DNA from: a virus
UHGV virus genome: UHGV-0143126
Reading direction: 5' to 3' (one strand)
Length of the DNA: 19,594 nt
Shown here: positions 4,263 to 5,533 of the stretch, piece after piece
How the letters are laid out: each line of letters begins with the position of its first letter
How positions within the stretch are numbered: the first letter of the stretch is position 1
Notes under the pieces: model-generated
Seen by the model: the letters and a program-made list of their open reading frames with translations, nothing else
The model's database searches: none
Told to the model about the DNA's origin: nothing
Position numbers and translations under genes: made by a program

Positions 4263-4655
4263 TCAGAATGGTTTTGTTGCCATCAGTTCGTAATATCCGG
4301 CGCTCCATGTGTCATATTTTCTGAACCATTTTTCTGTATACTGTTTCCTGGCGATGAGTCTGCGCAGTCGTCTGATTGTTCGCTGGTGTGCGCGGGTGTA
4401 CTCTGTGGTTGATTCTCCACGTTTCCATATTTCATTCCCGTTGAAGATAAAACGCTTGTCAGGATGGCGTTGTCGGAATCCTGAACGTTCAAAAGCGCGG
4501 GTGGCCATAAAGAATGCCAGGTAACGAATTGCCGTTTTTCGAGTGAGGCATTTTTTTGTTCTTCCGTGATGTGTTACAAAAAATAACGGGCCGACGGGTG
4601 TATCATGTTTCTGTAATGCCTGGTCAATGGCGCTGGCGGTGCGGTTGTCGATCAT
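4263..4655 (-). CDS. Hypothetical basic protein, 130 aa
   Basis: ORF with GGGAGA RBS; Arg/Lys-rich; start overlaps the stop of the upstream gene (ATGA). Confidence 0.55.
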   Translation of the reverse strand: MIDNRTASAIDQALQKHDTPVGPLFFVTHHGRTKKCLTRKTAIRYLAFFMATRAFERSGFRQRHPDKRFIFNGNEIWKRGESTTEYTRAHQRTIRRLRRLIARKQYTEKWFRKYDTWSAGYYELMATKPF

Positions 4656-4870
4656 TTCTTTATTTCTCCCGAATAACGTTCATGACTCATTACTTCCCAG
4701 TTCCGGCCGTCGTCTTTCGATAACAGCCGCCAGCGACGGTTAACCTTCAGACTGAGATATCCGTTGCGCTGTATCCGATGCGGGAATATACGTCGGCATC
4801 TGTACCGCCGCAGGGCCAGCAACGCCTGCTGGTGGACCCACTCAGGAATTCGCGTTGCTGTTAATGTCAC
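4652..4870 (-). CDS. Hypothetical basic protein, 72 aa, GTG start
   Basis: GTG start preceded by AGGAGGAAACCA; stop overlaps the downstream start. Confidence 0.5.
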   Translation of the reverse strand: MTLTATRIPEWVHQQALLALRRYRCRRIFPHRIQRNGYLSLKVNRRWRLLSKDDGRNWEVMSHERYSGEIKK

Positions 4871-5057
4871 TGGTTTCCTCCTGAGCAGGTGCTGTTATCT
4901 GATACCCCGCTCTTTCTGCCAGCCATATGAATGTATCCATGCTGGCAATCAGCTCTCCATCGCGGACTTTGCAGACATCTGTTACCTGGCCATTTTCAAT
5001 TGTCATAACGATCTGCACTTTTTCGTGCACAACAGATACAGGGGATAAATTAGCCAT
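4842..5057 (-). CDS. Hypothetical protein, 71 aa
   Basis: ATG preceded by GGAGG; overlaps both neighbouring genes. Confidence 0.5.
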   Translation of the reverse strand: MANLSPVSVVHEKVQIVMTIENGQVTDVCKVRDGELIASMDTFIWLAERAGYQITAPAQEETSDINSNANS

Positions 5058-5416
5058 CAGTTAATTCCTCCGCTGATATATTTTTCTTTCGCGTAATCAA
5101 TAACCTCTTGTAAAAGGTTGTCTATAATTAACTTTCCGGTTTCAGCCTGGTATTCAGTATGTTGATTAATCCCGATGGCATTCTGGTATGCAGTTCGGAA
5201 TTCTGTTTCACCCTCCACTCGACCCAATTCACCACGGGTAATGTCTTCAAAGCGCAACAGCAACTGGTTTATAAACTGTTCTGTTATTTCTATGGTCGTA
5301 ATGTTCCCATCCAGAAGGTCAACAATAAGCAGATCACCACCTGTTTTACGTTTTATTCGATGGAGTGCTGCAACAGCTATACGGCGACGATATGTATTAA
5401 TGGGGTCATGTGTCAT
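5057..5416 (-). CDS. Hypothetical protein, 119 aa, Arg-rich N-terminus
   Basis: ORF starting MTHDPINTYRRRIAVAALHRIKRK; weak RBS (GGGAAA). Confidence 0.5.
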   Translation of the reverse strand: MTHDPINTYRRRIAVAALHRIKRKTGGDLLIVDLLDGNITTIEITEQFINQLLLRFEDITRGELGRVEGETEFRTAYQNAIGINQHTEYQAETGKLIIDNLLQEVIDYAKEKYISGGIN

Positions 5417-5419
5417 TTG

Positions 5420-5533
5420 TTATTTCCCGTATGCTTTACGCAGAAATAAGCAGGCAATATGCATGTAATTTTCACCGTATTGTGCAATAAGACAGGCGGT
5501 CTTGTGTGATGCCATATTCTTTATAAAAGTCAT
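5420..5533 (-). CDS. Small ORF, 37 aa (MTFIKNMASHKTACLIAQYGENYMHIACLFLRKAYGK)
   Basis: Not in the ORF track. AGGAGG RBS 8 nt before ATG; stop 5 nt before the next gene start. Confidence 0.35.
   Translation of the reverse strand: MTFIKNMASHKTACLIAQYGENYMHIACLFLRKAYGK

Follow-up and report, generated by a model that had tools for sequence, protein, structure and literature searches.

A mosaic early-left gene chain in a lambdoid prophage encodes a miniature RelE/ParE-superfamily protein with a persistently linked acidic neighbour

The early-left operons of temperate phages form a reservoir of host-takeover and anti-defence genes, most of which are uncharacterised. Here, we examine a chain of five small genes from such a region in the virus genome UHGV-0143126, a stretch of 19,594 nucleotides that is referred to in its entirety as the window. 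The five genes and their products are designated, from the first gene of the chain to the last, w37, w119, w71, w72 and w130. One of them, w72, is a miniature protein of the RelE/ParE toxin superfamily, and the chain as a whole is a mosaic run of independently assorting prophage accessory genes and not a five-subunit unit.

Several described systems invite comparison with w72. The RegB protein of phage T4 is an early endoribonuclease that adopts a RelE/YoeB-like fold, has no known antitoxin and brings about rapid inactivation of mRNA; it carries an additional helix at the N-terminus, and catalysis is proposed to involve two histidines, H48 and H68 (PMC3014915). RegB is the best functional analogy to a toxin-fold protein encoded in an early operon, although its phage is virulent. 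No sequence similarity between RegB and w72 was found, and RegB is not among the structural matches listed for w72. In the bacterial mRNA interferases, the residues of the active site include Arg73, Tyr91 and His92 of HigB, His83 of YoeB and His87 of YafQ (PMC5027501). There is no detectable sequence homology between w72 and the RelE/YoeB/HigB/YafQ group. Furthermore, w72 differs from these proteins in being only 72 amino acids (aa) long with a single N-terminal helix, in having no adjacent canonical antitoxin of the RelB, YefM, HigA or DinJ type, and in being located within a phage pL operon, whereas the genes of the RelE/YoeB/HigB/YafQ toxins are arranged in an autoregulated bicistron.

A three-gene system, paaR2-paaA2-parE2, lies within the immunity region carried by the cryptic lambdoid prophage CP-933P of E. 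coli O157:H7, where PaaR2 is a CI-like regulator of transcription (PMC8630535). In contrast to that system, neither w119 nor w71 has a DNA-binding fold, and the chain in the window is downstream of pL and not in the repressor operon. A CI-like first gene in an immunity region is likewise missing, as no helix-turn-helix (HTH) was detected in w119 by Pfam or by fold search. Closer to w72 are relatives within PF24732 and PHROG 1525 that already carry functional names, namely p06 of Serratia phage OS31, named a "HigB-like protein", and a Klebsiella prophage protein named an "mRNA interferase". Proteins of this type are direct homologues of w72, with 39-74% identity or a hidden Markov model (HMM) match at E ~1e-24, and they share with it both the length and the WRLLS...W..MSHE.Y core, but their gene contexts are different, with a ParB-like gene upstream in OS31. 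These names derive from profile searches only, with HHpred cited for other OS31 genes, and are accompanied by no experiment (PMC7556043).

The five minus-strand open reading frames (ORFs) occupy window positions 4263-5533, as seen in both the ORF listing and the sequence, and are arranged as follows.

5420-5533, minus strand: w37, 37 aa, ATG start; first gene of the chain, encoding a basic microprotein.
5057-5416, minus strand: w119, 119 aa, ATG start; acidic protein, PHROG 1737.
4842-5057, minus strand: w71, 71 aa, ATG start; acidic protein, PHROG 340.
4652-4870, minus strand: w72, 72 aa, GTG start; very basic protein, PF24732 ParE_like and PHROG 1525.
4263-4655, minus strand: w130, 130 aa, ATG start; very basic protein, PHROG 1886.

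This is the arrangement described in an earlier note on this DNA, including the GTG start of w72, which is the first start codon past an in-frame stop and has AGGAGG 6 nt ahead of it. The tight packing through stop and start overlaps that had been described is also evident: w119 and w71 overlap by 1 nt (TGATG), w71 and w72 by 29 nt, such that w71 covers the w72 start, and w72 and w130 by 4 nt (ATGA), with w37 and w119 separated by a 3-nt spacer (TAA CAA ATG). Judged from the sequence, translational coupling of the five genes is plausible. The description of several of the proteins as strongly basic is accurate for w72, w130 and w37, with isoelectric points (pI) of 11.3, 10.8 and 9.5, respectively, but does not extend to w71 (pI 4.3) and w119 (pI 5.35), both of which are acidic.

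It had been stated that none of the five proteins matches a recognised family. For w72 this proved incorrect, as it is a clear member of the Pfam family PF24732 (ParE_like) with a RelE/ParE fold. The match spans residues 11-66 and scores 63.5 bits (E 1.8e-17), the curated gathering threshold being 24.4, PF24732 is matched by all 30 aligned w72 homologues, and w72 is the only one of the five proteins with a Pfam match. An AlphaFold2 model of w72 made with the 30 homologues has a predicted local distance difference test (pLDDT) score of 93.7 and a predicted template modelling (pTM) score of 0.79. The topology of the model is beta1-alpha1-beta2-beta3-beta4-alpha2, with a single N-terminal helix, and corresponds to the microbial-RNase-like alpha/beta fold, which is defined by one or more N-terminal helices on an antiparallel sheet of three to four strands. 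When 1.84 billion cluster representatives were scanned in full with HMMER, only 127 relatives of w72 (clusters at 50% identity) were identified, nearly all of which are stand-alone proteins of 62-99 aa. Among 69 representatives that are at most ~50% identical, R48 never varies, and conservation is at least 90% at both H63 and Y66. An arginine on the central sheet combined with a histidine and a tyrosine after the last strand appears to be the kind of set found in HigB, YoeB and YafQ, and for w72 this residue set is a lead to RNase chemistry over gyrase poisoning. Searches of the literature for PF24732 or "ParE family toxin-like" returned no paper.

Longer proteins with a ParE_like domain are also encountered. 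The divergent clusters P0251, P0280 and P0289 consist of proteins of 198-226 aa in which the ParE_like domain is C-terminal and the N-terminal ~135 aa are unassigned. At positions 4001-4597 of locus L122, a long ParE_like protein is encoded by a stand-alone gene, and the surrounding region, which we read as a mobile element, also has Gp49/HTH (HigBA-like), DHFR and SMR genes.

The overlaps between the genes had been taken to indicate a fixed stoichiometry of the five-protein set. Homologues of w72 were located in 104 distinct loci and their neighbours classified with family HMMs, and across these loci the modules assort independently, contrary to that interpretation. Genes resembling w71 are found in 84 of the 104 loci in zero, one or two copies, being absent from 20, and the w71-w72 junction varies among loci (-13, +3, +9, +28 and +31). 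On the other side of w72, w130 is the most frequent of five or more genes that occupy this position in different loci, being present in 68 of the 104; elsewhere, unrelated genes of 74, 88, ~168 and ~190 aa, at least four in number, are attached at the same ATGA junction. The 4-nt ATGA overlap at the w72 stop is itself kept in 93 of the 104 loci, whatever gene comes next. Most relatives contain an extra conserved gene of 63-76 aa between w37 and w119 (L004-L031; at ~3204-3419 in L008), which is absent from the window, where only 3 nt lie between w37 and w119. Approximately 140 of 246 matching E. coli genomes share only w37, and the similarity stops exactly at the w37/w119 junction. In Stx phages, w37 is followed by a w71-like gene and then by entirely different genes, with no w72, and in Salmonella phage Fels-1, w119-w71-w130 is present and w72 is precisely absent. 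Given that the modules swap independently, the overlaps are not evidence of a fixed-stoichiometry complex; they look like generic phage operon packing together with recombination joints at gene boundaries, as in the classical lambdoid mosaic. We regard w37 and w130 as separate modules.

The sole persistent association is that of w119 with w72, making w119 the best candidate partner. Of the 99 loci in which the identity of w72 reaches 58% or more, 97 have w119 upstream, as do 16 of 17 phage genomes containing a close w72; in 15 of the 104 distinct loci w119 directly abuts w72. A mirror-tree test gave r values of 0.38-0.68 over all gene pairs, with no pair singled out. Distant PF24732 members are found in Serratia, Klebsiella spallanzanii, Cedecea, the HK97-like phage OS31, phage Sortsne and a 95-kb phage.

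In a small number of cases, neighbouring genes are joined in frame. At positions 3623-4222 of locus L014 (Pseudocitrobacter faecalis DSM 27453), the reading frame of a w119 homologue continues through the ParE_like gene with no stop, giving a 199-aa ORF, and in the metagenomic proteins P0015, P0034 and P0037 a w71-like C-terminus is in frame with a ParE_like domain. Such joins of w119 or w71 with w72 may be hints of the Rosetta-stone type, or simply the result of stop-codon loss.

The absence of a family was upheld by profile searches for w37, which has no match in Pfam, PHROG, NCBIfam or PADLOC, and not for w72; w119, w71 and w130 could be assigned only to PHROGs without a function. Specifically, w130 belongs to PHROG 1886 (E 3e-58) and w71 to PHROG 340 (E 2e-25), w119 and w72 belong to PHROG 1737 and PHROG 1525, and all four are PHROGs of unknown function. 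In addition, w71 weakly matches the C-terminal part of an anti-repressor PHROG. NCBIfam returned nothing for any of the five proteins, Pfam and NCBIfam revealed no domain in w119, w71 or w130, and comparison of these three proteins with all chains in the Protein Data Bank (PDB) gave nothing significant. A fold search with the w119 model retrieved generic helical bundles only. An antitoxin DNA-binding domain of the ribbon-helix-helix (RHH), HTH, Phd/YefM or AbrB type was found in none of w119, w71 and w130. The reported absence of Kil, CIII, Gam, Bet and Exo signatures was borne out in Pfam, NCBIfam and PHROG for all five proteins.

Two further candidates for an antitoxin were considered and rejected. 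For w71 as a dedicated antitoxin, the gene is missing from 20 of 104 loci, is duplicated in others and is common without w72, as in the Stx phages and Fels-1. For w130 as a downstream antitoxin of the HigA kind, the protein is basic and has no HTH, and in other loci its place at the junction is taken by at least four unrelated genes.

All five ORFs are more than chance and represent real, conserved genes. In a sample of 120 related loci from GTDB genomes, IMG/VR and phage records, 44-86 distinct homologous sequences were recovered from related prophages for each gene. In all five, substitutions at codon position 3 are ~2-fold more frequent than at positions 1 or 2, and the median ratio of nonsynonymous to synonymous substitution rates (dN/dS) is 0.14-0.20 at 50-75% nucleotide identity, with the proviso that protein guidance of the alignments in the annotated frame leads to some bias towards that frame. 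This coding-type conservation in all five frames agrees with the earlier note, in which the genes were taken to be genuine. The smallest, w37, is a real gene, with 61 distinct homologues and a dN/dS of ~0.17; the homologues are 35-37 aa long and end in a near-invariant LFLRKAYG[RK] in more than 60 variants. For w72, dN/dS is likewise ~0.17, indicating strong purifying selection, and the N-terminus MTLTAIRIPEW, counted from the GTG or ATG, is conserved in 30 homologues. This conservation supports the GTG/ATG at position 4870 as the true start, whereas public pipelines often call a 40-aa C-terminal fragment of w72 from an internal ATG (hundreds of contigs). Of the five genes, the PGAP pipeline misses w37 and annotates the other four; w37 does appear in the annotation of the Stx1a phage record LC567819 and of other GenBank submissions. 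The exact sequences of all five proteins are already present in public collections, where each is on record as a hypothetical protein, and in RefSeq w72 already has the name "ParE family toxin-like protein".

A prophage of E. coli ATCC 43886 matches the window at 99.9% identity; it adjoins a DUF72 gene, and the integration site is read as the yecE locus from the neighbouring yecN and cmoA/cmoB genes. From right to left, the order of features is a cro-like gene, a CI-like repressor gene, a hairpin, a promoter, an HTH gene, a 121-aa gene and the five-gene chain, beyond which are a 62-aa membrane protein, an SPFH lipoprotein, DUF5406, DUF4222, xis and int. The features that bear on transcription of the chain are listed below.

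6801-7496: CI-like repressor gene.
6789-6773, minus strand: terminator-like hairpin, right after the CI-like repressor gene.
6708-6736, minus strand: probable pL promoter, TTGACA-17-TAATAT, 10/12 matches.
5556-5584, minus strand: conserved hairpin element between the 121-aa gene and w37.

The sequence at 6663-6701 flanking the promoter recurs at 7520-7586 beside cro, and 6663-6789 and 7520-7586 are probably oL/pL and oR, respectively. The chain is located 1.2-2.4 kb downstream of the probable pL promoter, and no terminator-like site was found on the minus strand from the promoter to the chain. Therefore, "early-left operon" is a fair description, and with the CI-like repressor gene, the terminator-like hairpin and a pL-like promoter whose flank is repeated at oR, the previous assignment to the early-left operon of a lambdoid prophage stands. 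From w37 to w130 there is no intergenic space for an internal promoter. The chain should be silent in the lysogen unless an internal promoter is present.

The hairpin element ahead of w37 is conserved wherever an intergenic region precedes that gene. In the window a 4-bp stem (CGGU/GCCG) encloses a loop of 6 nt, GGGG and a ...CAAYC motif come next, and across loci the stem is 4-5 bp and the loop 3-8 nt. Stem variants are compensatory (CGGC/GCCG, CGCC/GGCG, CACC/GGTG, TGCC/GGCA and CAGC/GCTG). In 26 divergent loci, stem positions pair in 81.7% of cells compared to 65% in shuffles, with 0 of 500 shuffles reaching the observed value; all four stem pairs show double changes, and slid controls pair at 18-57%. 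The folding energy of the hairpin is unexceptional. A search of Rfam gave no match and only a single copy was found in the window, leaving the idea of a nutL-type site unsupported. One possible role of the element is that of a signal for the translation or processing of w37.

Taking these features together, we tentatively favour, at somewhat below an even chance, a reading in which w72 is an early pL-expressed effector of the toxin type, most likely a ribosome-associated mRNA endonuclease, that is moderated by w119 with or without w71. Upon derepression of pL, or upon infection, w72 would be made within minutes and would be toxic to the host, acting as a RelE/YoeB/HigB-like ribosome-associated mRNA endonuclease by means of Arg48, His63 and Tyr66. 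For an early phage RNase with a RelE/YoeB fold, T4 RegB provides a precedent (PMC3014915). The acidic w119, co-translated just upstream, would bind w72 and temper its activity, and w71 may be an optional second acidic partner. That proteins with pI values of 4.3 and 5.35 are encoded ahead of w72, with its pI of 11.3, fits partner binding and can be taken as a hint of it. As such, w119 and w72 would form an effector and modulator pair of the lytic phase, and not an addiction module expressed in the lysogen. A further possibility, which we put forward as speculative and rather doubtful, is that w119-(w71)-w72 constitutes an unrecognised phage-restricted toxin/neutraliser module, in which a mini RelE-type mRNase is restrained by partners with new non-DNA-binding acidic folds and deployed from pL for host shut-off in the lytic phase or superinfection exclusion, but not addiction.

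Several results weigh against an mRNA endonuclease moderated by w119. In relaxed Pfam scans of the 30 w72 homologues, no other RelE, ParE, HigB or YafQ model was matched, and searches of all PDB chains with w72 as a single sequence and as a 30-sequence profile gave nothing significant and hence no sequence link to a solved toxin. The resemblance of R48, H63 and Y66 to toxin active sites is one of position and not of superposition. The literature contained no experimental report on any PF24732 member, and the family name rests on fold similarity. With respect to w119, Pfam, PDB profiles and the fold search revealed no recognisable antitoxin fold or DNA-binding domain, and PADLOC gave no defence-system match for the chain, the sole hit, of w119 to REase_II (E 0.0076, 14 bits), being noise. 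Furthermore, w119 is found without w72 in Fels-1, Fostie and YP3, and the neighbours of distant w72 homologues are unrelated, comprising ParB-like, Cys-rich (zinc-ribbon-like by eye) and other small proteins. Finally, the w119-w72 distance correlation (r = 0.51) is no higher than that of other pairs, and therefore the linkage may be plain synteny.

Of the alternatives, the one that survives best is a solitary early RNase like T4 RegB, in which w72 alone would perform host shut-off or phage mRNA processing, its neighbours being unrelated, and would need no antitoxin because it is made only in lysis-committed cells. This scenario would fit a family composed almost entirely of stand-alone proteins of 62-99 aa whose neighbours differ between phage groups, the lack of any outstanding co-evolution signal and an operon that is repressed in the lysogen, and RegB itself provides an example of a RelE/YoeB fold without a known antitoxin (PMC3014915). 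It is nevertheless unlikely in our view, as it does not anticipate that w119 is kept beside w72 in 97 of 99 close loci while all other neighbours are swapped, that acidic proteins are encoded immediately upstream of w72, or that in-frame fusions or read-throughs with the upstream genes exist.

We consider it quite improbable that the genes constitute a classical type II or PaaR-PaaA-ParE-like toxin-antitoxin system that is expressed in the lysogen, with w119 and w71 as regulator and antitoxin, and that serves prophage stabilisation or abortion of superinfecting phages. The order and sizes of the products (119, 71 and 72 aa; acidic, acidic and basic) do resemble paaR2-paaA2-parE2 of CP-933P (PMC8630535), and the genes overlap. 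However, w119 and w71 are without an HTH, RHH, Phd or AbrB domain, there is no PADLOC match, and w71 is dispensable, being absent from 20 of 104 loci and widespread without w72. A possible extended -10 (TGTTACAAT) is present upstream of w37. The promoter consensus scan did not call TGTTACAAT, and the corresponding position reads YRCAAYC in related loci, where the -10-like form is not conserved; we have rejected it as an internal promoter of general occurrence. Moreover, the chain has no operator or promoter of its own directly upstream and lies downstream of pL, outside the repressor operon.

Similarly improbable is that w72 is a non-toxic derivative of the fold, such as a ribosome- or RNA-binding regulator, and that the five genes are dispensable morons without relation to one another, their arrangement reflecting only the shared ancestry of this phage lineage. 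All neighbours of w72 do assort as a mosaic, the family is small, at 127 clusters (50% identity) among 1.84 billion representatives, and w72 has only one N-terminal helix, observations that speak for this account. Set against them are the strong purifying selection on w72 (dN/dS ~0.17) and the retention of an invariant R48 and near-invariant H63 and Y66 in very divergent members, pointing to a conserved active or binding site. The Pfam name would suggest a ParE-type gyrase poison that inhibits DNA gyrase, and not translation, and helps to arrest host replication after induction, but this is very unlikely, as PF05016-type ParE models are not matched and the family-wide Arg/His/Tyr set looks catalytic and, in comparison with ParE gyrase poisons, would point to an RNase.

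Other parts of the window provided additional observations. Directly downstream of the chain, at window positions 3190-4202 on the minus strand, there is a 4-nt overlap between the gene for a hydrophobic protein of 62 aa (PHROG 1130, "membrane protein", host-takeover category) and that for a 275-aa SPFH/Band-7 lipoprotein (PF01145, PHROG 200). We read this region, from its sequence, as a putative prophage-borne pairing of a small membrane protein with a stomatin-like protein. Upstream of the chain, the 121-aa ORF at 5612-5977 on the minus strand matches PHROG 5451 over its full length (121/121 positions), and RefSeq gives only the C-terminal 68 aa of it in a near-identical genome; the RefSeq start is probably mis-annotated. 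On the plus strand of the window, Rfam matches at gathering level were obtained for isrK at 8785-8861 (57 bits) and for C4 antisense RNA at 8886-8973 (80 bits), both inside the ORF of an "ash family protein" at 8728-9390. Given the nature of the C4 family, these matches suggest that, to the right of cro/Rha, there is an immI-like module of the P1/P7 type in which an antirepressor is under antisense control.

In most respects, the chain is ordinary early-left phage dark matter, all five proteins being already public and w72 already named in Pfam and RefSeq. Added here are the evidence for the w37 gene, the support for the GTG start of w72, the map of the neighbourhood mosaic, the w119-w72 linkage and the R/H/Y signature. 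From the five genes there emerges one candidate effector with a RelE/ParE fold and a candidate active site of R48, H63 and Y66, together with a strongly linked acidic candidate partner, w119. Whether w72 is active or inert, gene overlap at this locus does not imply a fixed-stoichiometry complex. If w72 is inert, the chain is typical mosaic phage dark matter. Should w72 turn out to be a ribosome-dependent RNase whose activity is held down by a partner of a new kind, the RelE family would gain a minimal phage form, and T4 RegB a lambdoid counterpart.

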